The notes below the pieces were generated by a model. The model saw only the letters and a list, made by a program, of their open reading frames with translations. It was not told where the DNA came from and ran no database searches. Below, piece after piece: positions 11,438-42,243 of a stretch of 42,401 nucleotides of DNA. The DNA is from an uncultured Eubacteriales bacterium (GTDB lineage: Bacteria; Bacillota; Clostridia; Peptostreptococcales; JAAYPU01), in NCBI GenBank assembly GCA_964553505.1, contig CAZKKX010000002.1, positions 1 through 42,401 on the forward strand. Direction: 5' to 3'. Numbering within the stretch: position 1 is the first letter of the stretch; each line of letters opens with the position of its first letter. The position numbers and the translations under genes were made by a program.

Positions 11438-11598
11438 TAAAGCTCATCCATTCATTTCAGCTGTATTATTTTGATTCAGGCTTGAAAAATTGGCATTCTT
11501 TTTCATTTGTTCCCGGATAACCTATTCTTATAAAAGCTAAATTTATACTTTTTTCAAAGATTGTCAATTTGTCAAGCATGAGCCTTTTTGTTTTACTA

Positions 11599-12315: not shown

Positions 12316-12514
12316 TAGTTTCCTTCCTTTATATAGTATTAATTTTGTAAATAATTTTAATCTCTGCACTTGCAATGATTTTATTCACTCATAAATCTTA
12401 TCATATAATCATAGGCTTGGAAAGTTTTTTGTTAATAATTTGTCATCAATTACCAGCATAGACATTTCATCAGCTATAATTTAAAAAATGGAAATACTCT
12501 ATTATTCATTATCA

Positions 12515-14414: not shown

Positions 14415-14444
14415 TTACATACCTCCATTTCCACAGTATAAAAC

Positions 14445-17966: not shown

Positions 17967-18178
17967 TTGTGTCCCTCCTTTTTTTGTCTTTACGGGATAA
18001 GCAAGAAAATCTTTAACAAACAAAATTTTTCTTTCCCTAACAGCCGTACTACAGCTCTTTTATTCTTTTACAACCCCACATACTGGTACCGGCATACATA
18101 AGGAGGTTGAGTATATCCTGTTTAACAATTATCTATTTTGTGATTTACTTTATTTATAATTTTAGTATATTTTTGTTA

Positions 18179-19123
18179 TTATAAATCACTATAAAGGCAT
18201 TTTGCAATTTTGATAAAATCTTTATCTCTTTTCTCAATGACTTTTTCGCCTCTTCCATTTGAATAATCATAAAAACCTTTGCCGGTTTTAGTACCATAAG
18301 CATTCTCTTCATAACACTTTTTCAATAAATCCGGTACCCCTTTCTGATTACTCAAATCATCAAAAAGATAACTTCCTACGTTATAAAAAGTATCCAGTCC
18401 ACCTAAATCAACAGTCTCAAAGGGACCGATACAAGCATATCTCATTCCGAGACCATATTTCATTACGTTATCTACATCCTCTAAATCTGCAATATCATTT
18501 TCAGCAATATACAATGCTTCTCTTAAAACAGCATATTGTAATCTGTTAAGAACAAAACCCTTGACATCTTTTTTTACTATTACCGGTTTTTTGTGAATGG
18601 ATATTGCCAAGTCTCTTGCAATTTCCACCGCTTCCTGTGATGTTTTATCTCCGGATATTACTTCAACCAAAGGTACTATATGAGGCGGATTTACCCAATG
18701 CATACCTGCAAAGCGTTCCGGTTTCTTTACAGCCTCGGCTATCTTTGTAATGGACAGCCCGGAAGTATTTGTGGTCAGCACCGAATCCTCCGGAGCGATG
18801 GCGGATACTTCTTCCCAAAATTTCTTTTTAATCGATAGTTTCTCAACAATGGCTTCAATAACATAGTCGGCCTTACTGAAGCAGCTTACGTCTGTGGAAA
18901 ATGAAATGTTTTTAATAATCTGCTTGGATAGTTCCTCCGTAATACTTCCCTCTTCTATTGAAGCTTTTTGATTAATTGTAATCAGTTCTTTTCCTTTGCC
19001 AATGGCTTCTTCAAAAATATCAAATAATATCACTTTGTATCCATATTGAGCGAAAATTTGAGCCATTGATGATCCCATTAGACCCGCACCGGCAATTACA
19101 ATCATATTGATATCTTTTTTCAC
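18179..19123 (-). CDS. 3-hydroxyacyl-CoA dehydrogenase-family NAD-dependent oxidoreductase (GTG start). The same family includes L-gulonate 3-dehydrogenase.
   Basis: Rossmann motif IAGAGLMGSSMAQ. Family core FAGMHWVNPPHIVPLVEVI and a C-terminal dimerisation domain. AAAGGAGA lies 8 nt upstream of the GTG. Confidence 0.85.
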   Translation of the reverse strand: MKKDINMIVIAGAGLMGSSMAQIFAQYGYKVILFDIFEEAIGKGKELITINQKASIEEGSITEELSKQIIKNISFSTDVSCFSKADYVIEAIVEKLSIKKKFWEEVSAIAPEDSVLTTNTSGLSITKIAEAVKKPERFAGMHWVNPPHIVPLVEVISGDKTSQEAVEIARDLAISIHKKPVIVKKDVKGFVLNRLQYAVLREALYIAENDIADLEDVDNVMKYGLGMRYACIGPFETVDLGGLDTFYNVGSYLFDDLSNQKGVPDLLKKCYEENAYGTKTGKGFYDYSNGRGEKVIEKRDKDFIKIAKCLYSDL

Positions 19124-19174
19124 ATTCTGTCTCTCCTTTCTTTATTATTCTATTCCAATACTAATCAAATTTTG

Positions 19175-20515
19175 TTAGACCATGGAGTCTGGCAGCCATA
19201 AGATCAACTGTGGAACGAATATAACCAATATCAGCAAAATAGCCATCATAGCCAGGAAAGGCATCGATCCTCGGAATATTTCTCCAACGCCGACACGTTC
19301 CTTCAGTTTCATTCCCTGTAAAGATGATTGAACCGTAAATACGGAGATTCCAAATGGAGGCGTAATCAAGCCCATTTCAACTGCGATGATCATTACAACA
19401 CCATACCACAGAGGATCGAATCCCAATCCGATAATAACCGGCACTGCAATAGGCGTTGTCAACAAAATAATTGAAGTGGCATCCAAAATGCATCCCAAGG
19501 CAATCTGAAGTGCACATAGAACCAATACAATGATTATAGGTGCCACAGGTAATTCCACTACAAAATTTCCTATCTTATTTATAACACCGCTGAGAGACAG
19601 CATCCTGGAAAACATCTGAGCCGAAATCAAGAGAAACAGGATGGAACCGCTTGTTTTTCCAGTATCCAGTAACGCATTCCAGAAACGTGCCCAAGTAAAT
19701 TTACCTTTTACAATCATGAGCACCAAAGTGACAAAACATCCTACACCGCCTGCTTCCGTCGGAGTAAAGTATCCGCTCCACATACCGCCGAAAATAATGA
19801 TAATCAATAATACAAAAACCGCAGGTCTTAATAATACTTTATACGCAGGCTCTGCATCTTCTTCGTTTTCATATATTGCCTTTGCTCCGATTTCATCAGG
19901 ATAACGCTTTCCAATATAAAAAATAACAACACAATATAAAAACGTAAGAATAAGACCTGGTACAATTCCTCCAAAGAACAGCTTACCAATGGAAACTTGC
20001 GCAACAGATCCATATACAATCATAAGGATACTGGGCGGTATCAGCATTCCAAGAACCGAACTTCCGGCAATTGTTCCTACGGAAAGCTTTTTGCTATAAC
20101 CCAGCCGCGTCATTTCCGGATAAGCAATTTTAGAAAAAACGGCTGCAGAAGCAATTGAAGCTCCTGTGATTGCAGCAAACACGGCATTAGAGACTACCGT
20201 TGCCATCGCAACACCGCCTCTTAATCTTCTCAATAATAAATTAGCTGCATCGTACAACTCCCGACCTGATTTGGATTCACTTGCAAATAAACCCATTAAA
20301 ACAAATAGAGGAATCACTCCGAATGAATAAGAACGAATAGCATTATAAGATGTCGTTCCCAACAACTTTACTGCAGTATTAAAATTTCCAATTGTCAAAA
20401 ATACACCTAATACACTAACTGATATCAGCGAAACACCAATACCCGTCCCGGAAAATAATAAAACCAATAAGACAAGGAGACAAACTAATCCAATCAATTC
20501 AGCACTTAATAACAT
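19175..20515 (-). CDS. dctM: TRAP transporter large permease (DctM family)
   Basis: 446 aa polytopic membrane protein with DctM-like segments. It overlaps the preceding small permease gene by 10 nt, the classic dctQM arrangement. Confidence 0.9.
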   Translation of the reverse strand: MLLSAELIGLVCLLVLLVLLFSGTGIGVSLISVSVLGVFLTIGNFNTAVKLLGTTSYNAIRSYSFGVIPLFVLMGLFASESKSGRELYDAANLLLRRLRGGVAMATVVSNAVFAAITGASIASAAVFSKIAYPEMTRLGYSKKLSVGTIAGSSVLGMLIPPSILMIVYGSVAQVSIGKLFFGGIVPGLILTFLYCVVIFYIGKRYPDEIGAKAIYENEEDAEPAYKVLLRPAVFVLLIIIIFGGMWSGYFTPTEAGGVGCFVTLVLMIVKGKFTWARFWNALLDTGKTSGSILFLLISAQMFSRMLSLSGVINKIGNFVVELPVAPIIIVLVLCALQIALGCILDATSIILLTTPIAVPVIIGLGFDPLWYGVVMIIAVEMGLITPPFGISVFTVQSSLQGMKLKERVGVGEIFRGSMPFLAMMAILLILVIFVPQLILWLPDSMV

Positions 20516-21045
20516 GTTTCATCCTCCTTTTCTCCAAGAATGCTTTTACCGCGAAGCAACCAATATGCCTGTCGAATCATTATTAAAAGTACCATTAAGG
20601 AGCAGAAAACAATAGTTCCACGTACCGGCCACATAGGAAGCACCAGAGCACCTTCTCCTTCCGTTTCCCTTTCCACAATAGAATATATCAGGTTTGTATA
20701 AGATGACTTTACCATTAAAACAAAGACGATGATTCCAAATATTTGGCTGAAAAATCTCAGTTTATGCTGTAATTTAATCGAGAATTTTTCATAAAAAATA
20801 CTTACTTTTAGATGTTCATCAATCATCTGTACATAAGTAAGCTGCAGAAATGCTATAATTGTGATCAAAGCAACTACCAGTTCCGGAACACCTGTAATAG
20901 GGTTATTGAAAAAGGTACGTCCACAAACATCTGCCATGATAATCACCATCAGAAACATCGTCAGTCCACAACCGATTGCATTGAGCCCTTTAATGTATAT
21001 GGAAAAAGGATCACCTAACTTCCCTCTTTTCTTACCGTTACCCAC
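20506..21045 (-). CDS. dctQ: TRAP transporter small permease (DctQ family; GTG start)
   Basis: 179 aa with four predicted TM helices, positioned between the binding protein and DctM. AAAGGAAGTG RBS. Confidence 0.8.
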   Translation of the reverse strand: MGNGKKRGKLGDPFSIYIKGLNAIGCGLTMFLMVIIMADVCGRTFFNNPITGVPELVVALITIIAFLQLTYVQMIDEHLKVSIFYEKFSIKLQHKLRFFSQIFGIIVFVLMVKSSYTNLIYSIVERETEGEGALVLPMWPVRGTIVFCSLMVLLIMIRQAYWLLRGKSILGEKEDETCY

Positions 21046-21076
21046 ATAATCACTTCCTTTCTTCTATGCTGATTTT

Positions 21077-21108
21077 TATTTGGCGGCAGGTTTAATCCGC
21101 CGCCAAAT
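21077..21108 (-). terminator. Stem-loop between the binding-protein and permease genes (partial terminator or mRNA stabiliser)
   Basis: TATTTGGCGGC (21077-21087) pairs with GCCGCCAAATA (21098-21108). The minus-strand downstream sequence is only weakly T-rich. Confidence 0.4.
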
Positions 21109-21143
21109 ATACCTTTGAGCTTTTGGAATTGAAAGTTTAAGTT

Positions 21144-22277
21144 TTATTTTTCCGGTACTCCGGATAACCAATCCCTGACAGGTTCAAATCCGGCATTTTG
21201 TATTGCTTCAAGATAGTCTCTCATAAACGGACGGATATCATCTATTCCTTCTGCTTCTTTTGCTTCTACATATGATAAAGGTACATTATCAAGAGTATCT
21301 GCCCATTCAACTTTTTGTTCATGTGTCATATAGATAACATCTTCACAATTTTCTTCCAGGAATTCAATTGTTTCATCATATCCCTCTTTGGAGTATTCAG
21401 CTAATCCATAGGTATATGCTTCTCCTCCTGCCATAAAAGCTTGTTGTACTTCTTCTGGAAGGCTGTTATAAAAATCTGTATTGATGGTAATAGCACCCAT
21501 CCATACTGCTTGGAAGTCTCCAATTAAACCATAAGGTGCTACTTCATAAAGATATAGGTCTTTATGGAAGCTGGTAGGCTGTAAAGACATTTCGTATAAT
21601 CCTGTCTGAAGGGCATTATAAGCCTCTGTTCCGGCTGACTGTATGGGAGTCGCTCGATTTGAAACCCAGCTTAGGTTAGATCCTGCTGCACCGACTCTCT
21701 TTCCATCCAGAGAATCCAGACCGGTATAAGGGAACTTTGATGTCATATTATAGCTCTCTGCTGTTGCCCAGCCAAATGGTATCTGACCGAACTTTTCAAA
21801 TTCTTCAGTCAGTTGAGGGTATCTGTCAATAAAGTCAAGCTGAATCTCTAATGCCGTATCCACATCCCAAACACCAAAAGGTACATAGTAAGTTATATTA
21901 CCATAAGGCAGGTTGGATTGTTCGAATACATAACAAACATTGGTCACATCCAGAAGCCCATCTTGGCAAGCTTCCAAACTTTCTGTAACTGTAGCAACTG
22001 TTGCTCCCCAGGACTCTACCCATTCAATTTCATAGTTTCCTGTTTTAGCCAACTCTTCTTCCACCTTAGGCATCATGTACTTTGTCATAGCACCTATCCA
22101 GCGATAACCTTCCGGTGTTTGTCCGGCGCCAATTCGCACCCTAATCTTTTCCGGATCATTTGTCCCTTCACCATTAGGAGCAGTATCTCCTCCGCCCCCG
22201 CAAGCCGTTGTAGCTAAAGCTAAACTCAGGACCAGGAGAAGGGTTAAAATTAACCTTCCCATTTTCATTTGTCTCAT
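21144..22277 (-). CDS. TRAP-associated extracytoplasmic solute-binding lipoprotein (DctP-type by context)
   Basis: Lipoprotein signal LVLSLALATTAC followed by a Gly-rich tether. Located immediately upstream of dctQM. AAGGAGG RBS. The family call rests mainly on context and size. Confidence 0.7.
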   Translation of the reverse strand: MRQMKMGRLILTLLLVLSLALATTACGGGGDTAPNGEGTNDPEKIRVRIGAGQTPEGYRWIGAMTKYMMPKVEEELAKTGNYEIEWVESWGATVATVTESLEACQDGLLDVTNVCYVFEQSNLPYGNITYYVPFGVWDVDTALEIQLDFIDRYPQLTEEFEKFGQIPFGWATAESYNMTSKFPYTGLDSLDGKRVGAAGSNLSWVSNRATPIQSAGTEAYNALQTGLYEMSLQPTSFHKDLYLYEVAPYGLIGDFQAVWMGAITINTDFYNSLPEEVQQAFMAGGEAYTYGLAEYSKEGYDETIEFLEENCEDVIYMTHEQKVEWADTLDNVPLSYVEAKEAEGIDDIRPFMRDYLEAIQNAGFEPVRDWLSGVPEK

Positions 22278-32827: not shown

Positions 32828-33193
32828 ATGAGCGGGAAAAAAACTGTTCTTATTTGTGATGACTCTATCACATCGAGGAAAAGGCTTAAGAAAACTATAA
32901 TTTCTAAAGGAAATTATGCAGTATTTGAAGCTGAAAACGGGCAAAAGGCCGTAGATTTATATAAGTCAGAGATGCCTAATCTGGTTTTTATGGATATTGT
33001 TATGCCCGTTAAAGATGGTCTTCAGGCAACCAAAGAAATTCGTGATTTCGATGAAAAAGCAAAAATTGTAATTCTGTCGTCAGTTGGAACAAAAGAAAAC
33101 CTGAAAGAAGCTCTCACTCATGGGGCAATGGATTTTATACAAAAACCTTGGGACGAGGATCACATCGAAAGCATGCTGAGAAAGCTTATTTGA
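32828..33193 (+). CDS. Stand-alone CheY-like response-regulator receiver protein
   Basis: 121 aa. Acidic pocket CDDS, phospho-acceptor context LVFMDIVMP, LSSVG (conserved Ser/Thr position) and IQKPW (conserved Lys). AAAGGAG RBS. Confidence 0.9.
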   Translation: MSGKKTVLICDDSITSRKRLKKTIISKGNYAVFEAENGQKAVDLYKSEMPNLVFMDIVMPVKDGLQATKEIRDFDEKAKIVILSSVGTKENLKEALTHGAMDFIQKPWDEDHIESMLRKLI

Positions 33194-33206
33194 AAGGGGT
33201 AAAAAA

Positions 33207-34076
33207 ATGTTCAGTCAATACTTCGGGCAATATCTTCTCAATAAAGGCTTGCTGTCTGCCCAGCAGTTAAGGGATGCCTTTGAACATGAAAAAAACACCA
33301 AAGTCAAATTGGGTGTTCTGGCCATGAATGCAGGCTTTATGTCTGCCGAACAAATTGAAAAGGTTTATAAACAGCAATCAAAAGTGGATGAAAAATTTGG
33401 TGAAATTGCAGTCAAAAACGGCTATCTTTCTGAAACTCAACTAAAAAAGCTATTGAGCACTCAAAAACAGGGTCATTTAGTTCTAAGTCAATATATTGTA
33501 GACAAGGGTTATATGTCTTTAACTCAACTGGATACAACCATGAAAGAATATATGAAATCAAGAAACTTGAACATTCGTAATCTCGATGACTTAAATATTG
33601 AAAAACTCTTGAACAACTATATCAATTTTGGGGATACATTATGGCATAAAATCTACTGGGAATACGTTTCTCTTCTTCTTAGAAATTGTATGAGATTTAT
33701 TAGTGATGTCCCGGTTATTCAGGTAGAACGAGTGGATGAAGCTTATTATTCGGAATGGATGGTATCACAGAGAATTTTTGGGAAGTTCAGCATGTTCACT
33801 TCATTTGCATCAAACGACCTTGGTGCCGCTAAACATTTGGCAGAATTGTTTAACAAGGAAGCTTTTGCTTCATTTGACGAATATGCACAAGACGGCATCA
33901 GTGAATTTTTAAATTTACATAATGGTATATTTTTAGTCAATATTTCTAACAGTGGCGTAGCTCTTGATATGGCTCCTCAACATATTTCTACTTGTGAAAA
34001 ACTGGATGAATTACCGGAATGTTACAAGATCACTTTAACCTGGATTTGGGGTGAAGTGGATATGGTGATATATTAA
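33207..34076 (+). CDS. Fusion protein: four tandem MshEN/T2SSE_N-type 24-residue motifs plus a C-terminal CheX/CheC-like phosphatase domain
   Basis: N-terminal motifs: FGQYLLNKGLLSAQQLRDAFEHE, LGVLAMNAGFMSAEQIEKVYKQQ, FGEIAVKNGYLSETQLKKLLSTQ and LSQYIVDKGYMSLTQLDTTMKEY, separated by 6-aa spacers. The C-terminal DGISEFLN...P fits the CheC/CheX/FliY motif D/S-x3-E-x2-N-x(~22)-P. The gene starts 13 nt after the CheY gene. Confidence 0.65.
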   Translation: MFSQYFGQYLLNKGLLSAQQLRDAFEHEKNTKVKLGVLAMNAGFMSAEQIEKVYKQQSKVDEKFGEIAVKNGYLSETQLKKLLSTQKQGHLVLSQYIVDKGYMSLTQLDTTMKEYMKSRNLNIRNLDDLNIEKLLNNYINFGDTLWHKIYWEYVSLLLRNCMRFISDVPVIQVERVDEAYYSEWMVSQRIFGKFSMFTSFASNDLGAAKHLAELFNKEAFASFDEYAQDGISEFLNLHNGIFLVNISNSGVALDMAPQHISTCEKLDELPECYKITLTWIWGEVDMVIY

Positions 34077-34110
34077 ACAGATAAAAGGTTCATTTGAGCG
34101 TGAGCGTAAA

Positions 34111-34142
34111 ATGAAGGATTTTGATTAATCAAAATCCTTCAT
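34111..34142. terminator. Bidirectional stem-loop between convergent genes
   Basis: ATGAAGGATTTTGAT-TA-ATCAAAATCCTTCAT forms a 15-bp perfect stem. It overlaps the stop codon of the minus-strand small ORF. Confidence 0.5.
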
Positions 34143-34330
34143 TGTTTATCATATTTTTCATACAGATCCTGAAGCTTCGTTGCCTGCATACCGCTTTCCT
34201 CAGCAAATTTCTTAAATATCTCGGCAACCTCCTGATCTGCTACTTGTTTTGAAAACATTTCATAATCTCTAACATTCTCCTGAGCATCCAACAACTTCTT
34301 GAAAATCGTATCACGTGTTCTCATTTCCAT
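34139..34330 (-). CDS. Small (63 aa) helical hypothetical protein
   Basis: The ATG at 34330 is preceded by AGGAGGG at 9 nt. The sequence is charged and helical, with no family I can name. Confidence 0.5.
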   Translation of the reverse strand: MEMRTRDTIFKKLLDAQENVRDYEMFSKQVADQEVAEIFKKFAEESGMQATKLQDLYEKYDKQ

Positions 34331-34468
34331 AATTTCTATCCCTCCTACTTTCATTATTATTATTTTTATCTTTCAGAGGAATAATTATGTATTCTTGAAT
34401 ATTTTAATTTAAATCGTTGAATTCGAAGTCAGGAGTCCAGAGGTCCCCGTCTCCTGTCATCTGTTTTT

Positions 34469-35212
34469 CTATGCTGTTTCACCACCATCAATTGGAATGA
34501 ACTGTCCGGTGATATAAGAAGCATCATCAGATGCTAAAAATGCATACAAAGCTCCTACCTCTTCAGGCTCTGCATGTCTTTTCAAAGGTATTCCTTCATT
34601 TACAACTGCAAACATTTCTTCTGTATATTCCGCTTTCTGCATGGGTGTCATTACATAGCCGGGACAGATTGAATTTGCTCTTATATATGGTGCATATTCC
34701 AAAGCAATGGTCTTCGCCAGCAGTATTACGCCTGCTTTTGAAGCATTATAATCCGCATAAAACGGATGCCCGCTCATACCATTGGTTGAAGCAGTAAACA
34801 AAATAACGCCGCTTTTCTGCTTTTTCATTCTTTTTACTGCTTCTTTTGAACAGAGAAACATTCCGTTAAGATTTATATCTATTACATTCTTCCACTGTTC
34901 ATACTCAATTTCATCAAAAGGCTTTCTGACACTTATACCGGCATTTGATATCAGAATATCGATACCTCCAATTAAATGATCTGCCTCTTGAAAACCATTT
35001 TTTACATCTGCTTCCGCACGAACATCTACTTTCACAGCTCCTACTAATCCCGGATTATTTTCAAGCACATTATCAAAAGCTTTATCATTTATGTCAAAAA
35101 TGACAACCTTTGCACCTTCCTTTACAAATCTCTGTGCGGTGGCAAGCCCTATTCCGCTTGCTCCTCCAGTTACAACAACTCTCTTCCCTTGAAGATCTTC
35201 ATGTATAGCCAT
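34469..35212 (-). CDS. SDR-family NAD(P)-dependent oxidoreductase (distal gene of the sigma-54 operon)
   Basis: TGGASGIG, NAG and the YNASK catalytic motif. The start was set to the ATG at 35212 (MAIHEDLQGKRVVVTGG), which is preceded by GGGAGG. Confidence 0.9.
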   Translation of the reverse strand: MAIHEDLQGKRVVVTGGASGIGLATAQRFVKEGAKVVIFDINDKAFDNVLENNPGLVGAVKVDVRAEADVKNGFQEADHLIGGIDILISNAGISVRKPFDEIEYEQWKNVIDINLNGMFLCSKEAVKRMKKQKSGVILFTASTNGMSGHPFYADYNASKAGVILLAKTIALEYAPYIRANSICPGYVMTPMQKAEYTEEMFAVVNEGIPLKRHAEPEEVGALYAFLASDDASYITGQFIPIDGGETA

Positions 35213-35249
35213 GTATAAGCCTCCCTTCATTTTATACCTTCTATACCTT

Positions 35250-36368
35250 TTAATAATCAATAGGATATATGACCTGTTCTTTATATCCTACTAATGCTTT
35301 AATATATCCACTCAGCATTTTATCTACTTTAATGTCTCCTGTATCCACCAAAAATGGACGGCCTCTGAGTTCAGAAATCTTCTGTTTTGTAGTAATAACG
35401 ATAATATTTTTTTTTCCTATACTCCGTACGATTCCTGAACTTATTTGTTGATTGCCTCTTCCTAAAAGATATCCCTGACCGCCAATAGGGGTAATAATAA
35501 GTTTACAATTATTCTTATTTGTTATGTCCTTTAACTGTTTCTCTGTAACATCCATTGCTACAAGCTGTTTGTTGCAAATGACATCAACGCCCAACAAAGT
35601 ATACGAAAGGCTCATTTCTTCCATAACAGCTCTGGTGGTTGTCCCAGGTCCTATTATATAGAAAATGTCATCCTCCATATTATCTATAACATCGAGTGCA
35701 ATGGCTTTCTGGGATACTGCTTCACTCAAAGGCGTAGGTGCTTTTCTATTCTGCACATAATTTTTTTCGTATGGGATTTTTAAATATCCAAATAATTGAG
35801 TATCGACTCTGCCTGCTCTGTACTCATTCTCATTGATATCCAGCACTTCTACTTCTTTCAAAGTCTTTATTTTGCCTGTCAGATAAAGTTTAGCCAGTTC
35901 TCCAGCCTTTCTCGGATTTCTGGCATAAACCGGGGAATGGATTTTGACACCGGCGGGAATTCCGATTACCGGAACCTTTTCTTCCACAGCTTTGAAAATG
36001 TCTCTTGCCGTCCCGTCGCCTCCTGTAAATAATATTATATCTACCTTTTCTCTTAACATAGCTTGAGCAGCATTTTTTGTATCATCAGAACTGCTGTAAT
36101 CCCTTTTATATTTCCAAACAACTTTTGTCGCAAAAAGATATTGCTTTGCTTCATTTTCACCCATATCCGACGAGCATGTCACTATTTCAATATCATTCCT
36201 TATATTACTAAGTACGCCGAGCGCCTCCATTGCCCTATGTGGAGAACGAGGTACAGCTCCCAGCTCTATAGCCTTCTGAACCACGTCATCCGTTCCTTTC
36301 AATCCAACACTGCCCCCCATTCCCGCAATTGGATTTACAATAAATCCTACTTTTTTCACTTTTACCAT
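35250..36368 (-). CDS. ATP-NAD-kinase-fold protein (COG3199/AcoX-like)
   Basis: VGFIVNPIAGMGGSVGLKGTD and the GGDGT signature (ILFTGGDGTARDI). 372 aa. It overlaps the gcvPB-like stop by 7 nt. Confidence 0.8.
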   Translation of the reverse strand: MVKVKKVGFIVNPIAGMGGSVGLKGTDDVVQKAIELGAVPRSPHRAMEALGVLSNIRNDIEIVTCSSDMGENEAKQYLFATKVVWKYKRDYSSSDDTKNAAQAMLREKVDIILFTGGDGTARDIFKAVEEKVPVIGIPAGVKIHSPVYARNPRKAGELAKLYLTGKIKTLKEVEVLDINENEYRAGRVDTQLFGYLKIPYEKNYVQNRKAPTPLSEAVSQKAIALDVIDNMEDDIFYIIGPGTTTRAVMEEMSLSYTLLGVDVICNKQLVAMDVTEKQLKDITNKNNCKLIITPIGGQGYLLGRGNQQISSGIVRSIGKKNIIVITTKQKISELRGRPFLVDTGDIKVDKMLSGYIKALVGYKEQVIYPIDY

Positions 36369-37948
36369 CCTTTTTTATCAATGGATTCTGATTTTCTCAG
36401 GTAACTTCTCCATGAAACACCCCATTCATCCGGTTCATCCAAACTTGTTTCATCCACCTGATGGCAGACGCTTCTGTGAGGTGCAGTTTTAATTATTTCT
36501 GGACTTTCATAAGCTTCCTGAAGAATATGTTTCAATGTTTCAATGTATTCATCCAAATCTTCCTTTGAAGGCGTTTCAGTCGGTTCTAAAGTCATAGGTT
36601 CAGGTATATAATACGGATGATGACTGGTCCAATAATGCATTCCGAAGTCCATCATTCTTCTTTGTATGTCACCTGTTGATATTCCCGTATCCTCTGCAAG
36701 CTTCTCTAATGTATATCTTACTTGTTCTATTCTTTGTTCTCCCCTAATATAAGGTGCATCTATGCACTCTACCTCCATTAATTTTTTGAATAAATAATTA
36801 TTATTGAGAACGGCTACTTTCGCAACCTCGTAAAGACCTTCCGCACCTAAAGCCATAATCCACGCATATGCCTTTACTACCACTGGTGCAACACCGTTAA
36901 ACATTCTTACTTTTCCAATATTAAAAGAATTTCTGCATATATCATAATTCAAAAAATACTTATCCTTATCATAATCGACAAGAGGTGCCGGCAAATATTT
37001 CTCCAGTTCTTTAACAACTCCCACAGCACCTACTGCCGGACCGCCGCATCCATGTGGTGTTGAAAAAGATTTATGAAGATTAAAGAAACACATATCAAAT
37101 CCTGCTTCTTTTGCTCTTGTAACACCAAACAAACCATTGGCATTGGCTTGATCATATCCGCATAATCCTCCTACACTATGAATTAAATCCGTAAACTCTT
37201 TTACTCTTGGATTGTAAACACCAGTGTCTTCGGGATTTGCTACAATAAAAGCAGCTGTTTTTTCACCGACTGCAGCCTTGAAAGCCTCAAAATCAGGAAA
37301 ACCATCTTTGTCCGGATGAATATAAATGATTTTATATCCCATTACTGCCGGAGCAGCAGCATCGGACGGATGAGAGTAGATTGTTGTTATGACTTCATCC
37401 TTTTGCTTTGCGTTTCCTTTTTCTTCATGGAAAGCACGTATAATTGAAGCCATGGTCATAACTGCTTGGCTTCCGCCTCCTGATTGAAAACTGAAACGAT
37501 CCATACCGGATATCTCACGCATGAAACCATCGGTTTTATACATTATTTCTAAAATACCCTGTACGGTATTCTCATCCTGCAAAGGATGCAATTCCGTTAC
37601 TTCAGGCAGCCGCGCAAGCATTTCGTTTACTTTCGGGCTGTATTTTACCGTACAAGTGCCTTGACCAATTTCTATATTAACATCTGCTCCTAATGTTTCC
37701 TGAGACAACCTCATATAATGTCTTAATACTCGCGGTTGAGATATTTCAGGAAGATTCGGAGATTGTTTTCTTCTGAGTTTTTCAGGTATTTTAGATATGC
37801 CATTTCCTACTTCATCGGCAATGACTTCTTCAGCCTCCGGCACCAATATGCCTCTTTCGCCTTTTTTACTCAATTCAAATATAATAGGTTCATCCCACTT
37901 TGCCTGATGGAAGTTTCTAATTTTTGAATTTCTGTTAATTCGTTTCAT
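36362..37948 (-). CDS. gcvPB: Glycine-dehydrogenase (decarboxylating) subunit 2-like PLP protein (P-protein beta)
   Basis: LPEISQPRVLRHYMRLSQ..., GQGTCTVKYSPKVNE and the PLP-lysine motif FNLHKSFSTPHGCGGP. 528 aa, slightly longer than the usual ~485-490. AAAGGAGG RBS. Confidence 0.85.
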   Translation of the reverse strand: MKRINRNSKIRNFHQAKWDEPIIFELSKKGERGILVPEAEEVIADEVGNGISKIPEKLRRKQSPNLPEISQPRVLRHYMRLSQETLGADVNIEIGQGTCTVKYSPKVNEMLARLPEVTELHPLQDENTVQGILEIMYKTDGFMREISGMDRFSFQSGGGSQAVMTMASIIRAFHEEKGNAKQKDEVITTIYSHPSDAAAPAVMGYKIIYIHPDKDGFPDFEAFKAAVGEKTAAFIVANPEDTGVYNPRVKEFTDLIHSVGGLCGYDQANANGLFGVTRAKEAGFDMCFFNLHKSFSTPHGCGGPAVGAVGVVKELEKYLPAPLVDYDKDKYFLNYDICRNSFNIGKVRMFNGVAPVVVKAYAWIMALGAEGLYEVAKVAVLNNNYLFKKLMEVECIDAPYIRGEQRIEQVRYTLEKLAEDTGISTGDIQRRMMDFGMHYWTSHHPYYIPEPMTLEPTETPSKEDLDEYIETLKHILQEAYESPEIIKTAPHRSVCHQVDETSLDEPDEWGVSWRSYLRKSESIDKKGW

Positions 37949-37980
37949 TTTTTCAGCCTCCTTTTCCTTAATTTTTTAAA

Positions 37981-39384
37981 TCACGAATTTAAAACTTCCT
38001 CAATCGAAGCGGCCAACTTGTCTATATCAATTTTAGTATGAATTTCTGTCACACAATATAAAGCACATTGCCCTAATTCCGGATATGCTGCCGAAAGATC
38101 TTTTCCGCCAAAAACGCCTTTCTCTACGAGTTTTTTATTTACTTCATGTACTGTTTTCCCTGTTTTATTAAAATCAACTACAAATTCTTTAAAGCTGACA
38201 CTTGAAAACAGAGATCCTTTCACACCTTTAATCTTATTCAAACGTTTCATGGCATATTGTGATTTTTGCATTATGTTTTGACCGATTTCTTCCATTCCCT
38301 TTGGTCCCATTAGCGCCAGATATACACCGGCAGTTATGCCCCACAAAGCAGTCTGGGTTCCCACGTATTCTTTTCCATGCTCTCTAAGATTTCCAAAAGA
38401 AGTTCTCTCATAAGCCACATCACCAAAACCATACTCCCCTTCTACGGAAGTGGGTGCTATCCCAAAAATCCTTGAAGGAAATTCCATTACAAATTCTTCT
38501 TCATCCCTTGTGGCAATAAATCCGGATTGACCGCCCCCATAATTCATATGAATTCCCAATGGCTGCAAATCACCGCATATAATATCTGCTCCATATCGTG
38601 ACGGAGGTTCCAATACTCCGAGAGAAATTGGATCTACCCCAACAATACTGATTGCACCAAACTGATGTGCTAAATCAGATATTTTCCCACCATTCTCTTC
38701 TAAAACTCCTATGAAAGATGGATTCTCAAAATATACGGCAGCTGTTTTATCCGAAACCTTATTCTTTAAATCATTAAAATCGATTTGTCCAGTCTCTTTG
38801 ACAAAGTCCACCTGTACCAGTTCGATATCTGGGGAACAATAATTTTTTATAATCAAAAATTTTTCCATATCCACAGTTTTTGGAATAACAGCTTCTTTTC
38901 TTCCGTTTATTCGTGATGCCATTCTTATTGATGTCGCAGCAGCCTGAGGCCAATCCATAGTAGGAACATTTACCACATCCATGTCTACTAATTCACCCAT
39001 AAGGCTCTCGTACTCAAATAAGGCCTGAAATCTTCCATGATCATTGTAAGGTTCTCCACCGTAAGCAGTAAGAAATTCTCCTCTTGAATTAATCTCATCA
39101 CATACAGCAGGAACATAATGCTGCCAGCAGCCCCCACCCAGAAAATTCAAATACTCTTTGCAGGTTTTATTTTTACCGAGAATATTTTCAACGTGCCTTC
39201 TGAGTTCATATTCTGATGGGATCGCTTTTGGCAGCTTCATATTTTCTTTTAATTTTATAGCATCCGGAACTGCTTCATGTAATTCTTCAAGCTTGTTCAG
39301 TCCTATGGTTTCAAGCATTTCTTTCTGAACTTCCGAAACTGAATTTGGAATATAAGGATGATTTTTGAATCCTTTAATTGCCAT
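37981..39384 (-). CDS. gcvPA: Glycine-dehydrogenase (decarboxylating) subunit 1-like protein (P-protein alpha)
   Basis: HPYIPNS..., FLGGG...HYVPAV, YGGEPY and a GcvPA-length protein (467 aa). AGGAGGG RBS. Confidence 0.85.
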   Translation of the reverse strand: MAIKGFKNHPYIPNSVSEVQKEMLETIGLNKLEELHEAVPDAIKLKENMKLPKAIPSEYELRRHVENILGKNKTCKEYLNFLGGGCWQHYVPAVCDEINSRGEFLTAYGGEPYNDHGRFQALFEYESLMGELVDMDVVNVPTMDWPQAAATSIRMASRINGRKEAVIPKTVDMEKFLIIKNYCSPDIELVQVDFVKETGQIDFNDLKNKVSDKTAAVYFENPSFIGVLEENGGKISDLAHQFGAISIVGVDPISLGVLEPPSRYGADIICGDLQPLGIHMNYGGGQSGFIATRDEEEFVMEFPSRIFGIAPTSVEGEYGFGDVAYERTSFGNLREHGKEYVGTQTALWGITAGVYLALMGPKGMEEIGQNIMQKSQYAMKRLNKIKGVKGSLFSSVSFKEFVVDFNKTGKTVHEVNKKLVEKGVFGGKDLSAAYPELGQCALYCVTEIHTKIDIDKLAASIEEVLNS

Positions 39385-39412
39385 TTTATTCCCTCCTATA
39401 TTATTTGTAGTT

Positions 39413-39449
39413 GTGTGAGTGAAAGTAAAAGTGTTAAGTGTGAGTGTAA
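39413..39449. repeat. Hexamer stutter array TGTGAG TGAAAG TAAAAG TGTTAAG TGTGAG TGTAAG
   Basis: Read directly from the sequence. Intergenic within the operon. It shares AAGTAAAAGTGT(T)AAGTGT with the array at 42217-42258. Confidence 0.85.
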
Positions 39450-39453
39450 GTGA

Positions 39454-40242
39454 CTATGCTATTCCTCCACCATCAACTACTATTGCGGTTCCTGTTATCC
39501 ATTTTGATAAATCACTGGCTAGAAACAATACGGTATTGGCGATATCCTCCGGCATACCCAATCTTTCAAGGGGTCTGCCTTTTGCCGAATCCTTAAGGAA
39601 AGCAATTTCTTCACATCCCAGCTGCCTACCTTCTTCCCTAAGCATATTTGTATTGGTATCTCCCGGATTCACGCTGTTTACCCGAATATTTTGAACCCCA
39701 TGGTCAATGGCCATCGCCCGAGTCAGATTAACAATTCCGCCTTTAACAGCACAATAAACTGCCGCTTTATCTCCGCCTTTAAGCCCCCACCCGGATCCGG
39801 TATTGATGATGCTTCCGCCGCCTCCTGCCGCCATAATAGGAATGACAAACTTAGACATCAGATAAGTGCCCTTTAGTCCGACATTAATAACAAAATCCCA
39901 CTCACTCTCATCAATGTCAACAACTGTCTTTCTGACAGTAACACCTGCATTATTAAAAAGAATATCCATTCTTCCAAAAGTATCTTTGATATCATTAACT
40001 GTTTTTTTTACTTCCTTTAATGAAGTAACATCGCATTTTTTAAAAATAGCCACCCTTCCTGCATTTATCAGGTTTTGAGCTTCTTCTTCTCCTTTATCAT
40101 CTACATCTATCATAACCACCTTGGCTCCGTAGGCCGACAGTAATTGTGATACGCCAAGACCGATACCTGATGCTGCTCCTGTAATTACCGCTACTTTTCC
40201 TTCAAGTGATAATACGTTCTTTTTCCGTAACAAAAACGCCAT
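39454..40242 (-). CDS. SDR-family oxidoreductase (first gene of the sigma-54 operon). The start may be TTG three codons downstream.
   Basis: TGAASGIG, NNAG and the YCAVK catalytic motif. AGGAGG abuts the ATG with no spacer, so the in-frame TTG at codon 4 is an alternative start. Confidence 0.9.
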   Translation of the reverse strand: MAFLLRKKNVLSLEGKVAVITGAASGIGLGVSQLLSAYGAKVVMIDVDDKGEEEAQNLINAGRVAIFKKCDVTSLKEVKKTVNDIKDTFGRMDILFNNAGVTVRKTVVDIDESEWDFVINVGLKGTYLMSKFVIPIMAAGGGGSIINTGSGWGLKGGDKAAVYCAVKGGIVNLTRAMAIDHGVQNIRVNSVNPGDTNTNMLREEGRQLGCEEIAFLKDSAKGRPLERLGMPEDIANTVLFLASDLSKWITGTAIVVDGGGIA

Positions 40243-40276
40243 CCTCCTCTCATATTGTTATTTCTCTAAGTATTAC

Positions 40277-40294
40277 TTGCATCTTTTATGCCAG
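40277..40294 (-). promoter_or_regulatory. Sigma-54 (-24/-12) promoter
   Basis: The minus strand reads CTGGCATAAAAGATGCAA, with GG-N10-GC spacing as in TGGCAC-N5-TTGCA. The -12 GC lies 37 nt upstream of the ATG at 40242. A sigma-54 EBP gene is encoded divergently. Confidence 0.65.
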
Positions 40295-40385
40295 TTTTTC
40301 AGAGTATGACAGCAACTATATGATTATTGGTTTAATGCCACTTGAACATAAACTAAATTTAAAAATAGTAATCAAAAAGAAATTA

Positions 40386-40405
40386 TTTTGCCAATAATGG
40401 CAAAA
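40386..40405. promoter_or_regulatory. Candidate upstream activating sequence for the EBP
   Basis: Perfect 8-bp inverted repeat TTTTGCCA-ATAA-TGGCAAAA, centred about 100 bp upstream of the -24 element. An AT-rich tract lies between them. Confidence 0.5.
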
Positions 40406-40408
40406 TGT

Positions 40409-40437
40409 TTGCCATGCTTTTCAATATGGGATATAAT
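40409..40437 (+). promoter_or_regulatory. Sigma-A-type promoter for the EBP gene
   Basis: TTGCCA (40409-40414), a 17-nt spacer, then TATAAT (40432-40437), about 37-49 nt before the candidate start codons. Confidence 0.5.
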
Positions 40438-40473
40438 TTATAATATTTAATACTTAACTTATTTTCTAAAAAG

Positions 40474-42243
40474 GTGCTGATAGACTTGATCCTCCTAGAA
40501 GAATTCAGATCTGATCTTCAAAATATGATAGAAGGAATAAGCCATTCCTTAAATTTAGAAGCGGCAGTTTTCGATTCACAAAACCATATTATTGCCAGTA
40601 CTCCTACCTACTTGAACAGAAAAGGGCATGCGGTTCACGCCCCTTCCATTGAAGAAGTTATAATGAATGGCAATATATTGGTCAATAAACCAGGCTACAT
40701 GAAATCATGTATTGGATGCCGCTTTACAGGCAATTGTCCTGCAACAATAGAAATATTGAATTGCATCAAATATGAAAACAAACCTATAGGCGTTATTACC
40801 CTTACCTCTTTCACAAAAAACGGACACAATAAAATTACTGAAAACCTTCATGTATATGTAAATATTGTAAACAGGATGACTGAGTTTATCTCAAACCTTA
40901 TTTCCTGTAAATATAAAAGCAATCAAATACGCACCCTTCAAAAAATCCTTCAGAGCACTTTAGATATGTCTAATAAAGGTATTTTGGTAATAGATAAAAA
41001 TGGATTTGTGAATTTTAGTAACCCTGTATCTGAAAAATTATTTTCTTTTTGCGGTTTATATTCACAATCGATCCATCAATTGCTGCCTGAACCTTTCAAT
41101 AAAAAAATAATGAAAGGAAGACCCGTTAATGAGATACTACGGAGCAAGGAGATAAACGGCAAAGTTATCTCTTCTCCTTTATTTGAAAATGATCAATTTC
41201 AAGGAGCTGTTCTTCAAATCGTTCCGGAAAACATAAAAGATTATGATGGGATTTCTCAAAATAATCAAAAACAAAAATTTTCCATGGACGATATAAAAGG
41301 CTCAGGTCCTGCCATAAACCTTCTAAAAAATAGAATTAAAAAAATTGCCAAAAGCTCATCTACAGTCTTAATAACCGGCGAAACAGGTACAGGGAAAGGT
41401 CTTGCTGCAAAAGCCATTCATCACGAAAGCATTCGGTGTAACTTTCCCTTTATTGTTATAAACTGTGCCAGTATTCCCGAAACTTTGTTTGAAAGCGAAT
41501 TATTCGGTTATGAAGAAGGGGCCTTTACAGGTGCTAAAAAGGGTGGAAAGTTAGGGCAATTTGAATTAGCTCAGAATGGCACTCTTTTTCTTGATGAAAT
41601 AGGTGAAATGCCGTTGCATATTCAGGCAAAACTGTTAAAGGTGCTGCAGGATCAAACGATAGAGCGTGTGGGTGGAACAAGTTCCATTCCTATAGACGTC
41701 AGAATCATCGCAGCAACCAATAAAAACCTTATTCAAATGGTTGAAAATCAAAAATTCAGAGAGGATCTTTATTATCGGTTAAATGTAATCCCAATGGAAA
41801 TACCCTCCTTAGCCAGCAGAATCGATGATATTGAGGAACTGTCTCATGAATTTCTAAAAAAATACACCAATAAACTCAATAAAAAAATCGACGGATTCTC
41901 CAATGATGTTCTTCGTCTTTTTTATAAATATGATTGGCCTGGCAATATCCGAGAATTAGAAAATGTAATAGAGTATGTGGTGAATATGGAAGAGGCAAAT
42001 ATCATCCAACTAACCAGTCTGCCTGAAAAATTCGGTGATTCGGTGACAAACAATGCCGGTTCCATCAAAAAAAGAAAAGATGATATGGAACTGAAGACCA
42101 TATGTAATGCTTTAAATAAGCATGGCTGGAATGTAAAGGGGAAAAAGCTGGCAGCGGAAGAATTGGGCATAGGATTAAGAACTTTATATAGAAAGTTACA
42201 AAAATTACAGTTGAAATGTGAGTATGAGTATAAGTTTAAGTAA
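40474..42243 (+). CDS. Sigma-54-dependent transcriptional activator (N-terminal sensor + PAS-like + AAA+ + Fis-type HTH). Start is GTG 40474 or TTG 40486.
   Basis: Walker A GETGTGKG, sigma-54 contact loop GAFTGA, ELENV, and C-terminal HTH AAEELGIGLRTLYRKL. The N-terminal region carries CIGCRFTGNCP. Confidence 0.92.
   Translation: MLIDLILLEEFRSDLQNMIEGISHSLNLEAAVFDSQNHIIASTPTYLNRKGHAVHAPSIEEVIMNGNILVNKPGYMKSCIGCRFTGNCPATIEILNCIKYENKPIGVITLTSFTKNGHNKITENLHVYVNIVNRMTEFISNLISCKYKSNQIRTLQKILQSTLDMSNKGILVIDKNGFVNFSNPVSEKLFSFCGLYSQSIHQLLPEPFNKKIMKGRPVNEILRSKEINGKVISSPLFENDQFQGAVLQIVPENIKDYDGISQNNQKQKFSMDDIKGSGPAINLLKNRIKKIAKSSSTVLITGETGTGKGLAAKAIHHESIRCNFPFIVINCASIPETLFESELFGYEEGAFTGAKKGGKLGQFELAQNGTLFLDEIGEMPLHIQAKLLKVLQDQTIERVGGTSSIPIDVRIIAATNKNLIQMVENQKFREDLYYRLNVIPMEIPSLASRIDDIEELSHEFLKKYTNKLNKKIDGFSNDVLRLFYKYDWPGNIRELENVIEYVVNMEEANIIQLTSLPEKFGDSVTNNAGSIKKRKDDMELKTICNALNKHGWNVKGKKLAAEELGIGLRTLYRKLQKLQLKCEYEYKFK

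Follow-up and report, generated by a model that had tools for sequence, protein, structure and literature searches.

A CheY-like receiver paired with an (MshEN_N)2-CheX fusion protein in Bacillota: a candidate link from c-di-GMP to chemotaxis-type signalling

The gene pair and its genomic setting

The window, a 42,401-nt stretch of DNA (contig CAZKKX010000002.1) from an uncultured Eubacteriales bacterium, carries a two-gene unit on its forward (+) strand, to which the coordinates below also refer. It consists of a gene for a 121-aa CheY-like single-domain receiver (REC; positions 32828..33193; ORF, Pfam Response_reg) and, after a 13-nt gap, a gene for a 289-aa (MshEN_N)2-CheX fusion protein (33207..34076; ORF); an earlier note on this DNA had placed both reading frames and the gap exactly there. 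An SD-like AAAGGAG lies 8 nt 5' of the receiver gene, and a terminator-like 15-bp hairpin (34110..34143), common to a convergent 71-aa ORF, closes the unit. Scanning the 71-aa ORF and the 29 main non-overlapping ORFs of 110 aa or longer with Pfam bears out the earlier note that no cheA, cheW, MCP or flagellar gene is present in the window, and the same ORFs include no GGDEF/EAL or histidine-kinase gene. Neither the window nor the three closest loci yielded a c-di-GMP riboswitch when scanned, the only match being a tRNA.

The receiver scores 94.9 bits against Pfam Response_reg and contains Asp11, Asp12, the phospho-acceptor Asp56, Ser84 (the Thr87 equivalent), Phe103 and Lys106-Pro107. It is a stand-alone receiver with the Asp-Asp/Asp/Thr(Ser)/aromatic/Lys quintet, and these residues are conserved in 95% or more of 80-81 orthologous sequences, in keeping with the claim that its conserved phosphorylation residues are all present. 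The best PDB relatives of the receiver are CheYs, those of P. horikoshii (7e-23) and T. maritima (1e-21) and B. burgdorferi CheY3 (1.5e-17), and the top eight PDB matches, among which is one CheY chimera, are CheY sequences without exception. Against NF041367 (CheY_Halo) the receiver scores 103 bits, where the cutoff is 200. We also observe that CheY3, among the closest solved relatives of the receiver, is a known CheX substrate.

How widespread is the pair? We found 278 homologues of the fusion protein, and the family comprises 389 cluster representatives at 50% identity (E <= 1e-30), nearly all of them ~290 aa long and matched end to end. It occurs in at least 262 species genomes from the Clostridia, Bacilli and Negativicutes and diverges to about 38% identity, with a conserved MFSQYFG N-terminus; carriers include Rossellomorea marisflavi, a Lysinibacillus/Ureibacillus, Paenibacillus phyllosphaerae and Sporomusa ovata. 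The survey of distribution that had been proposed as a check thus finds the receiver and fusion pair to be widespread in these three classes. The REC gene is immediately upstream of the fusion gene and on the same strand in every one of the 80 loci examined, the intergenic distance ranging from -47 to +18 nt in the 78 loci where it was measured, and one homologue (P0238, 435 aa) is itself an MshEN2-CheX-REC fusion. The suggestion that the neighbouring CheY-like protein is the likely substrate of the fusion protein is strengthened by this constant adjacency and by the single CheX-REC fusion.

The surroundings of the pair are variable. Clustering of all ORFs within 6 kb in the 80 loci, together with a Pfam count of the 147 nearest neighbours, yielded no conserved partner: the commonest nearest-neighbour family accounts for at most 7 of the 147, and the immediate neighbours are housekeeping genes from 128 different families. 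Kinase, che, flagellar and c-di-GMP-enzyme genes are likewise not conserved near the pair in the 80 loci. A histidine-kinase-like gene lies about 5 kb upstream in only 15 loci, all from one lineage. MCP genes occur near the pair in 12 of the 80 loci, and in seven Sporomusa-type loci the pair lies within a co-directional MCP-STAS-REC-fusion cluster.

The C-terminal CheX-type domain

Residues 147-289 of the fusion protein (33645..34073) form a CheX-type domain with a single active site, as judged from Foldseek, from a family profile and from the AlphaFold model, in which the domain has a pLDDT of 88-97. The predicted catalytic residues are E233-F-L-N236 (E-x2-N; 33903..33914), assigned by alignment to solved CheX structures, and they are followed 21 residues after N236 by P257 (33975..33977), which is Pro in 44 of 47 homologues; all residue conservation in the fusion protein was counted over these 47. 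The earlier note had read the same D229-G-I-S-E233-F-L-N236 motif and Pro in the light of an x22 spacing. The residues are as described, whereas the spacing, N-x20-P, is that of T. maritima CheX, x22 being the spacing in CheC. E233 and N236 are invariant (47/47), and EFLNLHNG around the catalytic pair is absolutely invariant in the homologue alignment. E233 and N236 align on GELGN of T. maritima CheX and on TEVGN of B. burgdorferi CheX, and P257 aligns on the ITPP Pro of both proteins. Read from the sequence, the first helix of the domain contains no second E-x2-N.

In Foldseek searches of the PDB, the modelled domain matched 3hm4 and 3iic (E = 3.5e-8) and 3hzh_B (1.4e-5), and it superposed on T. 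maritima CheX (1squ) with a TM score of 0.80 and an rmsd of 2.3 Å over 148 columns. Six CheX/CheC-like structures were matched at E = 3.5e-8 to 1.5e-6, with TM scores (target) of 0.73-0.80 over 143-155 columns; FliM structures appear at ranks 17-24, the top matches being true CheX enzymes. The family profile in turn matches 3iic, 1squ, 1xko and 3hzh_B, and 38 of the 47 homologues match PF13690 (CheX; E <= 0.01). The C-terminal domain as modelled has a CheX fold, and the aligned Glu, Asn and Pro, with the profile and structural matches, uphold the assignment of the C-terminal half as CheX-type.

The window protein alone has no PF13690 match in Pfam. One homologue (L048) scores 20.5 bits against this profile, for which the cutoff is 27, the window protein scores 14.7-15.9 bits against NF041094 (cutoff 280), and its best CheX sequence matches are weak (E = 0.006-0.02). 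Could the domain be inert? Scores below the curated thresholds would fit a CheX-like domain that serves as a c-di-GMP-dependent binder or sequesterer of the phosphorylated receiver (a scaffold or an anti-CheY), or else a module outside motility whose receiver obtains its phosphoryl group from acetyl phosphate or from a kinase other than CheA. The CheC/CheX fold is used also by non-enzymatic FliM, the window contains no motility-related gene, and the immediate neighbours are diverse housekeeping genes. Set against these observations, the absolute invariance of E233, N236 and their surroundings is what catalysis predicts, the closest structures are CheX enzymes and not FliM, and MCP genes do lie near some of the pairs; we consider an inert domain or a non-motility module quite improbable.

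The CheX-type domain thus compares with known CheX phosphatases as follows. Its fold is like those of T. maritima CheX (1squ/1xko) and of B. burgdorferi CheX in complex with CheY3-BeF3 (3hzh), with TM scores of 0.63-0.80; like them it has a single E-x2-N-x20-P site with the residues aligned, and its gene adjoins that of a CheY. However, classical CheX is a stand-alone protein of ~150 aa encoded in che operons, whereas here 146 residues of sensor and linker are fused to the N-terminus, the two genes are not part of a che operon, and the sequence identity to classical CheX is only 12-17%.

The N-terminal MshEN array

The N-terminus of the fusion protein consists of four MshEN-type motifs, each 24 residues long and set apart by spacers of 5 residues, giving a period of 29; the earlier note had counted units of 23-24 residues with 6-residue spacers, which is incorrect. 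Unit 1 (aa 5-28, YFGQYLLNKGLLSAQQLRDAFEHE; 33219..33290) was recognised from the motif and the alignment of the 47 homologues, unit 2 (aa 34-57, KLGVLAMNAGFMSAEQIEKVYKQQ; 33306..33377) and unit 3 (aa 63-86, KFGEIAVKNGYLSETQLKKLLSTQ; 33393..33464) match the published relaxed motif, and unit 4 (aa 92-115, VLSQYIVDKGYMSLTQLDTTMKEY; 33480..33551) is the most degenerate. The relaxed motif is given by Wang et al. (2016) as two copies of [RKPN]hGxxhhxx[GAS]hhxxxxhxxxhxx[QNKRYWST] with a 5-residue spacer, forming a 53-residue unit. Only units 2 and 3 match it exactly, and units 1 and 4 miss at two positions each. The array is followed by a low-confidence, poorly conserved linker (aa 116-146; 33552..33644) with a pLDDT of 50-67, falling below 50 at aa 124-129, and a length that varies in the alignment.

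The polar contact positions 1, 3 and 24 distinguish the units. In units 2 and 3 of the window protein these positions are K, G and Q, and K/R, G and Q are invariant in the 47 homologues: K34, G36 and Q57 in unit 2 and, in unit 3, G65 and Q86, along with an equally invariant F64. In unit 1, the hydrophobic core is canonical, position 1 is Tyr, and position 24, which is Gln in 38 of 47 homologues, is Glu in the window protein. In unit 4, position 1 is a hydrophobic residue (Val), position 3 is Ser where 36 of 47 homologues have Gly, and position 24 is an invariant Tyr. The earlier statement that each unit fits the motif was thus overstated for unit 4, whose positions 3 and 24 are Ser and Tyr. 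The hydrophobic motif positions are conserved in all four units.

Profile and structure comparisons support the same assignment. Against NCBIfam NF053729 ('c-di-GMP_motif, MshE-related') the fusion protein scores 75.1 bits (E = 2.8e-21; cutoff 38) in two stretches, far above chance, which bears out the claim of four consecutive MshEN-like units. By segment, units 1+2 score 46.8, units 2+3 44.1 and units 3+4 37.9 bits, the last of these right at the 38-bit cutoff. PDB sequence matches are to the N-domains of MshE (5htl) and PilF, both c-di-GMP-binding; unit 2 aligns to MshE residues 8-32 and unit 3 to MshE residues 37-61. The AlphaFold model of the fusion protein (pLDDT 82.6, pTM 0.60, with dips in pLDDT at the 1/2 and 3/4 junctions) contains eight helices in aa 2-118, arranged as the helical-hairpin (four-helix) bundles of MshEN_N. 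In Foldseek local superpositions, the modelled N-terminus fits c-di-GMP-bound MshE (5htl) with an rmsd of 0.6-1.0 Å over 53-57 columns and PilF GSPII-B with 1.1 Å. The structure prediction suggested as a check thus yields a model that superposes both on c-di-GMP-bound MshE and on CheX structures. The suggested HMM searches gave a divided result: Pfam T2SSE_N (PF05157, even at E <= 10) and CheX both miss the window protein, while NCBIfam and family profiles recover the domains; the refutation named in the earlier note, failure of profile searches to recover either domain, was thus only narrowly avoided. Pfam annotations of the fusion protein as FumaraseC_C, DUF4388, HTH_AraC or EF-hand are sub-threshold and misleading, and arise from the helical-hairpin repeats.

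The curated HMM, the matches to MshE and PilF and the superposition on 5htl support the earlier proposal of two MshEN-like domains: the N-terminal array consists of two MshEN_N-type 53-residue modules. Pair HMM scores, identities to MshE counted by hand and the course of pLDDT along the model do not settle the pairing register, (1+2)(3+4) or a 2+3 core. The array resembles V. cholerae MshE (5htl) in its 24+5+24 layout, and it resembles MshE and T. thermophilus PilF GSPII-B/C (8pdk, 8pfa, 6f8l) in its helical-hairpin bundle (rmsd 0.6-1.1 Å) and in sequence, with 32-34% identity over the 53-residue module. Unlike in MshE and PilF, MshEN_N occurs here as two consecutive copies in an unvarying 29-residue period and without MshEN_C; the repeats ahead of the linker span just about 115 residues, leaving no MshEN_C/T2SSE_N1 subdomain. 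Whereas the array of MshE or PilF is fused to a secretion or pilus ATPase, that of the window protein is fused to a phosphatase domain.

Does the array bind c-di-GMP? PilF GSPII-A does not bind the ligand even with its consensus restored (PMC12002112), so a close motif match is no guarantee of binding, and XpsE is a further non-binding MshEN relative (PMC5013675). With such precedents, the deviations of units 1 and 4 at the polar contacts, the Glu instead of Gln that ends unit 1 and the threshold score of units 3+4 would be expected if the repeats had ceased to bind c-di-GMP and had become a dimerisation, localisation or partner-binding module; with the phosphatase part unchanged, the pair would then simply be a dedicated CheY/CheX couple without second-messenger input. 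However, units 2 and 3 match the motif fully with invariant polar contacts, and the score of the array in full is double the curated cutoff. [quoted passage not shown] A loss of binding therefore appears unlikely to us.

A possible c-di-GMP-modulated signalling module

We propose that the window pair encodes a c-di-GMP-modulated phosphatase and its partner CheY-like protein, acting as a self-contained signalling module, a proposal to which we give an even chance of being correct. First, the receiver would be phosphorylated by a kinase encoded elsewhere, most plausibly a CheA of the chemotaxis type. Second, the fold and the invariant catalytic residues lead us to predict that the CheX domain acts on the receiver as B. 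burgdorferi CheX acts on CheY3, removing the phosphate by insertion of Glu233 and Asn236 into the active site of the receiver. Third, the motif match and the fold suggest that the four-motif array would form MshEN_N-type helical bundles binding one or two c-di-GMP. The liganded array may then act through the flexible linker to alter the activity or dimerisation of the CheX domain or its access to the receiver, and the lifetime of the phosphorylated receiver would consequently depend on the cellular level of c-di-GMP. The effect could be one of activation or of inhibition, and the output might be either the flagellar switch or a phosphate sink by which CheA is drained. The MCP-STAS-REC-fusion clusters of the Sporomusa-type loci favour the proposal; the sub-threshold CheX and T2SSE_N scores, the degenerate units 1 and 4, the non-binding PilF GSPII-A, the lack of a kinase, che/flagellar or c-di-GMP-enzyme gene in the window or conserved nearby, and the lack of a c-di-GMP riboswitch in the window count against it.

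The second of these outputs defines a variant of our proposal. Phosphate-sink CheYs are established in alpha-proteobacteria, and the pair could be a tunable sink in which the extra CheY competes with the motor-binding CheY for CheA and the fused CheX sets a c-di-GMP-dependent drain, shifting motor bias indirectly; the neighbouring receiver would then not be an end substrate with its own output. Consistent with this output, the receiver lacks an output domain and is always encoded together with its partner, its own phosphatase, and none of the loci examined has the pair within a complete che operon; moreover, the receiver, apparently a CheY paralogue, carries a conserved DDSxxxRK where the aligned CheYs of T. 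maritima and P. horikoshii have DDAAFMR. It nevertheless retains K106 and, as its aromatic switch residue, F103, as is usual in CheYs that can drive an output, and we regard a sink, though conceivable, as a rather doubtful output. It is with similar reserve that we raise the broader speculation that REC and (MshEN_N)2-CheX form a stand-alone, c-di-GMP-tunable 'phosphate valve' of Bacillota, in which the auxiliary CheY competes for CheA phosphoryl groups and the phosphatase, through its fused sensor, adjusts the drain to the c-di-GMP level. If so, up to two ligand sites could make the response graded or cooperative, and the valve would be a direct second-messenger input into Gram-positive chemotaxis signalling, distinct from PilZ-type motor brakes and clutches.

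PilZ proteins acting on the motor are the main known route by which c-di-GMP curbs swimming. In our preferred reading of the pair, the fusion of a sensor to a CheY-P phosphatase would feed the second messenger into the phosphorelay rather than the motor. The fusion proteins are soluble, small (~290 aa) and common across Clostridia, Bacilli and Negativicutes, and the gene of the predicted substrate lies alongside; the family offers an unusually clean system for the study of MshEN_N control of an attached enzyme.

The architecture itself was already on record: Supplementary Table 4 of Wang et al. (2016; Nat Commun 7:12481, PMC5013675) lists '(MshEN_N)2 - CheX' for Deltaproteobacteria and Firmicutes, with Geobacter lovleyi Glov_2742 (ACD96455) as the example. 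The window protein shares with Glov_2742 the order and number of domains, two tandem MshEN_N followed by CheX. The table entry is an architecture listing, which itself carries neither binding or activity data nor mention of an adjacent CheY-like gene. Our literature searches found no characterised MshEN-CheX protein, and to that extent the statement of the earlier note that it was aware of no characterised example still stands, although the architecture had been catalogued in 2016 (PMC5013675). With the fusion listed by that survey and no experimental study found, the pair is a good but not a new candidate for a link from c-di-GMP to chemotaxis-type signalling. Given that record, what we add is modest: evidence from profiles and structures that confirms the architecture, the 80/80 pairing with a CheY-like gene together with one fusion protein, and the finding that neither a kinase nor a c-di-GMP enzyme is co-located with the pair.

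Related couplings are known from other bacteria. In V. cholerae (PlzC-CheX) and V. vulnificus (PlzD/CheX), a c-di-GMP effector is tied to CheX control of CheY-P and to swimming, and the motility effect of PlzC on CheX is reported to be separate from its c-di-GMP-dependent role (PMC12799141, PMC12887009). PlzC and PlzD are separate PilZ proteins that act in trans, whereas the sensor and the phosphatase domain of the window protein are one polypeptide. A precedent for a c-di-GMP switch on a fused enzyme is E. coli NfrB, a glycosyltransferase whose C-terminal MshEN allosterically activates the enzyme to which it is fused (PMC10118264). NfrB differs from the window protein in its enzyme, in being membrane-bound and in its reverse domain order; an NfrB model matches the fusion protein at E = 3.5e-7.

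The two halves of the fusion protein

What are the two halves of the 289-aa fusion protein? The N-terminal half carries four consecutive MshEN-type units, as the earlier note had read them, at residues 5–28 (unit 1), 34–57 (unit 2), 63–86 (unit 3) and 92–115 (unit 4). Each is 24 residues long and the spacers are 5 residues, not the 6 first counted, which is the 24+5+24 arrangement found in V. cholerae MshE (PMC5013675). Of the profile and structure checks on the MshEN assignment, Pfam T2SSE_N gave no match in the fusion protein, but the curated NCBIfam model NF053729 ([quoted passage not shown]) matched it in two stretches at 75.1 bits (E = 2.8e-21, cutoff 38), and the AlphaFold model of this half, eight helices, superimposes locally on c-di-GMP-bound MshE (5htl) at 0.6–1.0 Å over 53–57 columns. 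Adjacent unit pairs alone score 46.8 (1+2), 44.1 (2+3) and 37.9 (3+4) bits, and PilF, MshE and PilB, through their c-di-GMP-binding N-domains, were the only hits of PDB sequence searches with this half. Because the MshEN_C subdomain is absent, the N-terminal half is MshEN_N only.

The assertion that every unit fits the motif stands for units 2 and 3, which conform to the published relaxed motif and in which Lys/Arg-1, Gly-3 and Gln-24 are invariant, but units 1 and 4 deviate at positions 1, 3 or 24. In unit 1, position 1 is invariably aromatic (Tyr in the window protein), and position 24, usually Gln across homologues, is Glu; in unit 4, position 1 is hydrophobic, position 3 is Ser (usually Gly) and position 24 is an invariant Tyr. 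From unit 1 to unit 4, position 1 is Y, K, K/R and hydrophobic, and position 24 is Q/E, Q, Q and Y; across residues 1–115 (window 33207–33551) the outer motif ends are degenerate and the inner ends canonical. The units could pair as (1+2)(3+4), as the label “(MshEN_N)2” implies. A canonical 2+3 core or site with degenerate flanking units 1 and 4 is also a possibility, because the inner ends are canonical and AlphaFold pLDDT peaks across the 2/3 junction, dropping at the 1/2 and 3/4 junctions. Set against these degenerate ends, the hydrophobic motif positions are kept in all four units, and we regard it as unlikely that the units have lost ligand binding. In MshE, mutations at hydrophobic positions lowered affinity more than 10-fold, and changes of Arg-9 and Gln-32 less than 5-fold (PMC5013675). 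A related domain, PilF GSPII-A, fails to bind c-di-GMP even when its consensus is restored (PMC12002112), so binding by the four units is a prediction from the motif.

The CheX domain that had been read in the C-terminal half (residues 147–289) escaped Pfam, which found nothing in that half of the window protein alone, and the window protein alone matched a Thermotogales CheX model at only E = 0.009–0.02; homologues, structure and aligned residues bear it out. First, PF13690 is matched by 38 of 47 full-length homologues and is precomputed on many homologues' database entries. Second, the C-terminal AlphaFold model is confident (pLDDT 88–97), matches six CheX/CheC-like crystal structures in Foldseek (E = 3.5e-8 to 1.5e-6), with CheC and FliM far below the CheX structures, and aligns with T. 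maritima CheX at TM 0.80 and rmsd 2.3 Å. Third, in the domain profile E233-F-L-N236, which is invariant in the family, falls on GELGN in T. maritima CheX and on TEVGN in B. burgdorferi CheX, and P257 falls on the ITPP of both. These three independent lines, drawn from sequence and models, establish the assignment as a CheX-type domain. The N-x20-P active-site spacing is that of CheX, and the single E-x2-N is likewise a CheX feature not shared by CheC.

The receiver and its pairing with the fusion gene

The receiver gene (121 aa, 32828–33193, + strand) and the fusion gene (33207–34076, same strand) are separated by 13 nt, exactly as first read, and both have a Shine-Dalgarno-like purine run ahead of them. 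The receiver matches Pfam Response_reg at 94.9 bits, and its top eight matches among solved structures are CheY sequences without exception, a CheY chimera among them (P. horikoshii CheY, 7e-23; T. maritima CheY, 1e-21); the CheX substrate defined by crystallography, B. burgdorferi CheY3, comes after these two at 1.5e-17. The full set of phosphorylation residues claimed for it is present (D11, D12, D56, S84 as the Thr87 equivalent, the aromatic switch F103 and K106-P107) and kept in at least 95% of 81 receiver orthologues. We regard it as a CheY-like paralogue, not as “the” CheY, since the sole CheY equivalog model that matches it does so below threshold (103 bits, cutoff 200) and it conserves DDSxxxRK where the CheYs aligned with it have DDAAFMR.

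A CheY-like receiver gene lies directly upstream on the same strand in all of the 80 best loci; across the 78 loci where the gap was measured it ranges from −47 to +18 nt, and stop and start codons often overlap. Among these 80 loci no further neighbour is conserved above lineage level; 128 Pfam families are represented among the 147 nearest neighbours, with at most 7 neighbours in any one. One homologue (P0238, 435 aa) is a three-part MshEN2-CheX-REC protein whose C-terminal CheY-like receiver (residues 317–423) matches the window receiver at E = 4.5e-21. By sequence, P0238 is a Rosetta-stone link between CheX domain and receiver, and no simple read-through, because its domain order is opposite to the gene order.

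Our Pfam scan of the 42.4-kb window covered its 29 main ORFs (non-overlapping, 110 aa or longer) together with a 71-aa ORF. It found genes for repair, division, transport and central metabolism as well as a sigma-54 activator and an IS110 transposase, and no cheA, cheW, MCP, flagellar, GGDEF/EAL or histidine-kinase gene. The earlier note's claim that cheA, cheW, MCP and flagellar genes are missing therefore holds and extends to the last two classes. The pair might serve as a phosphate sink, a variant of the main reading that we consider rather improbable. Least probable of all is that the CheX-like domain is inert or sequestering, or that the pair acts in a non-motility pathway: its predicted catalytic residues are invariant, and MCP genes lie near the pair in 12 of the 80 loci. 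Seven Sporomusa-type loci (L048:3305-7431; also L051, L053, L054, L055, L066 and L061) carry MCP, STAS, REC and fusion genes as a cluster read in one direction, in which the STAS gene (108 aa) starts 4 nt after the MCP gene (4HB_MCP_1-HAMP-MCPsignal). Just downstream of this cluster is a convergent DUF520 (YajQ-family) gene; YajQ-family proteins are reported to bind c-di-GMP in Xanthomonas.

Proposed mechanism and relation to known systems

Sequence and model analysis has shown two domains, conserved residues predicted to act in catalysis and ligand contact, a CheY-like neighbour and strict gene pairing. We propose that the CheX domain would dephosphorylate the adjoining receiver, that the MshEN-type units would bind one or two c-di-GMP molecules, and that binding would alter the phosphatase through the flexible linker at residues 116–146 (pLDDT 50–67). 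The ligand effect could fall on phosphatase activity, dimerisation or receiver access. For the complete chain, from dephosphorylation through c-di-GMP binding to modulation, we judge the prospects evenly balanced.

The earlier note was right about the architecture and overstated its novelty: Supplementary Table 4 of the 2016 survey by Wang et al. already lists “(MshEN_N)2 - CheX”, with Geobacter lovleyi Glov_2742 (ACD96455) and a distribution in Deltaproteobacteria and Firmicutes, and that table gives no experimental reference (PMC5013675). Full-text literature searches found no published characterisation of such a protein. The architecture is therefore not a new kind; it is already known, though uncharacterised, and the fusion protein adds one more member. 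Its nearest functional analogies are NfrB, an MshEN fused to a glycosyltransferase (PMC10118264), and the recently described Vibrio PilZ-CheX connections, which act in trans (PMC12799141, PMC12887009). The present analysis confirms the architecture by structure and by profiles, shows the fusion gene paired with a dedicated CheY-like gene in all 80 loci, and finds neither a kinase nor a c-di-GMP enzyme consistently encoded alongside.

The family is large. A word-indexed search gave 278 homologues and an exhaustive HMM search 389 cluster representatives (50% identity, E <= 1e-30), nearly all of about 290 aa and matching end to end. A scan in which each species was represented by a single genome recovered relatives in at least 262 species, and the best 80 of these loci include Clostridia, Oscillospiraceae, Peptococcia, Desulforudis, Sporomusa/Selenomonadaceae, Paenibacillus, Lysinibacillus, Ureibacillus and Cytobacillus. 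The closest relative among the loci listed is from an Anaerovorax odorimutans MAG (87% identity).

Genomic surroundings

The pair's same-strand upstream neighbour is a 5-formyltetrahydrofolate cyclo-ligase gene. A 15-bp terminator-like hairpin (34110–34143) lies 3' of the fusion gene, which shares it with a convergent 71-aa ORF (MKVGGIEIMEMRTRDTIFKKLLDAQENVRDYEMFSKQ..., 34139–34354, − strand) that has no Pfam match. Among the retrieved loci, L004–L035 (Oscillospiraceae / “Bacillota bacterium OH_” MAGs) have a lineage-specific syntenic block on the other strand, upstream of the pair, comprising a TPR protein, an unannotated 343-aa protein, protein-glutamine gamma-glutamyltransferase (TGL, a spore-coat cross-linking family), a polysaccharide-synthesis/MatE flippase and a HATPase_c kinase-like gene; an unannotated gene of ~575 aa lies just downstream.

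Elsewhere in the window, the IS110-family transposase (DEDD_Tnp_IS110 + Transposase_20; 128–1366, − strand) sits at the contig edge, and a tRNA lies at 10451–10521 (+ strand). The minus-strand stretches 10727–12375 and 12738–22277 hold two GntR/FCD regulators in tandem and, upstream of them, a catabolic cluster with an IlvD/Edd-type dehydratase, a 1192-aa pyruvate:ferredoxin oxidoreductase, a 3-hydroxyacyl-CoA dehydrogenase and a TRAP transporter (DctP/Q/M). Finally, we note a minus-strand block within 34469–42243 encoding an SDR, an NAD-kinase-like protein, glycine-cleavage P-protein subunits 2 and 1 and a second SDR; the sigma-54-dependent activator (40474–42243, + strand) comes next and is divergent, which suggests that this amino-acid catabolic operon is under sigma-54 control.
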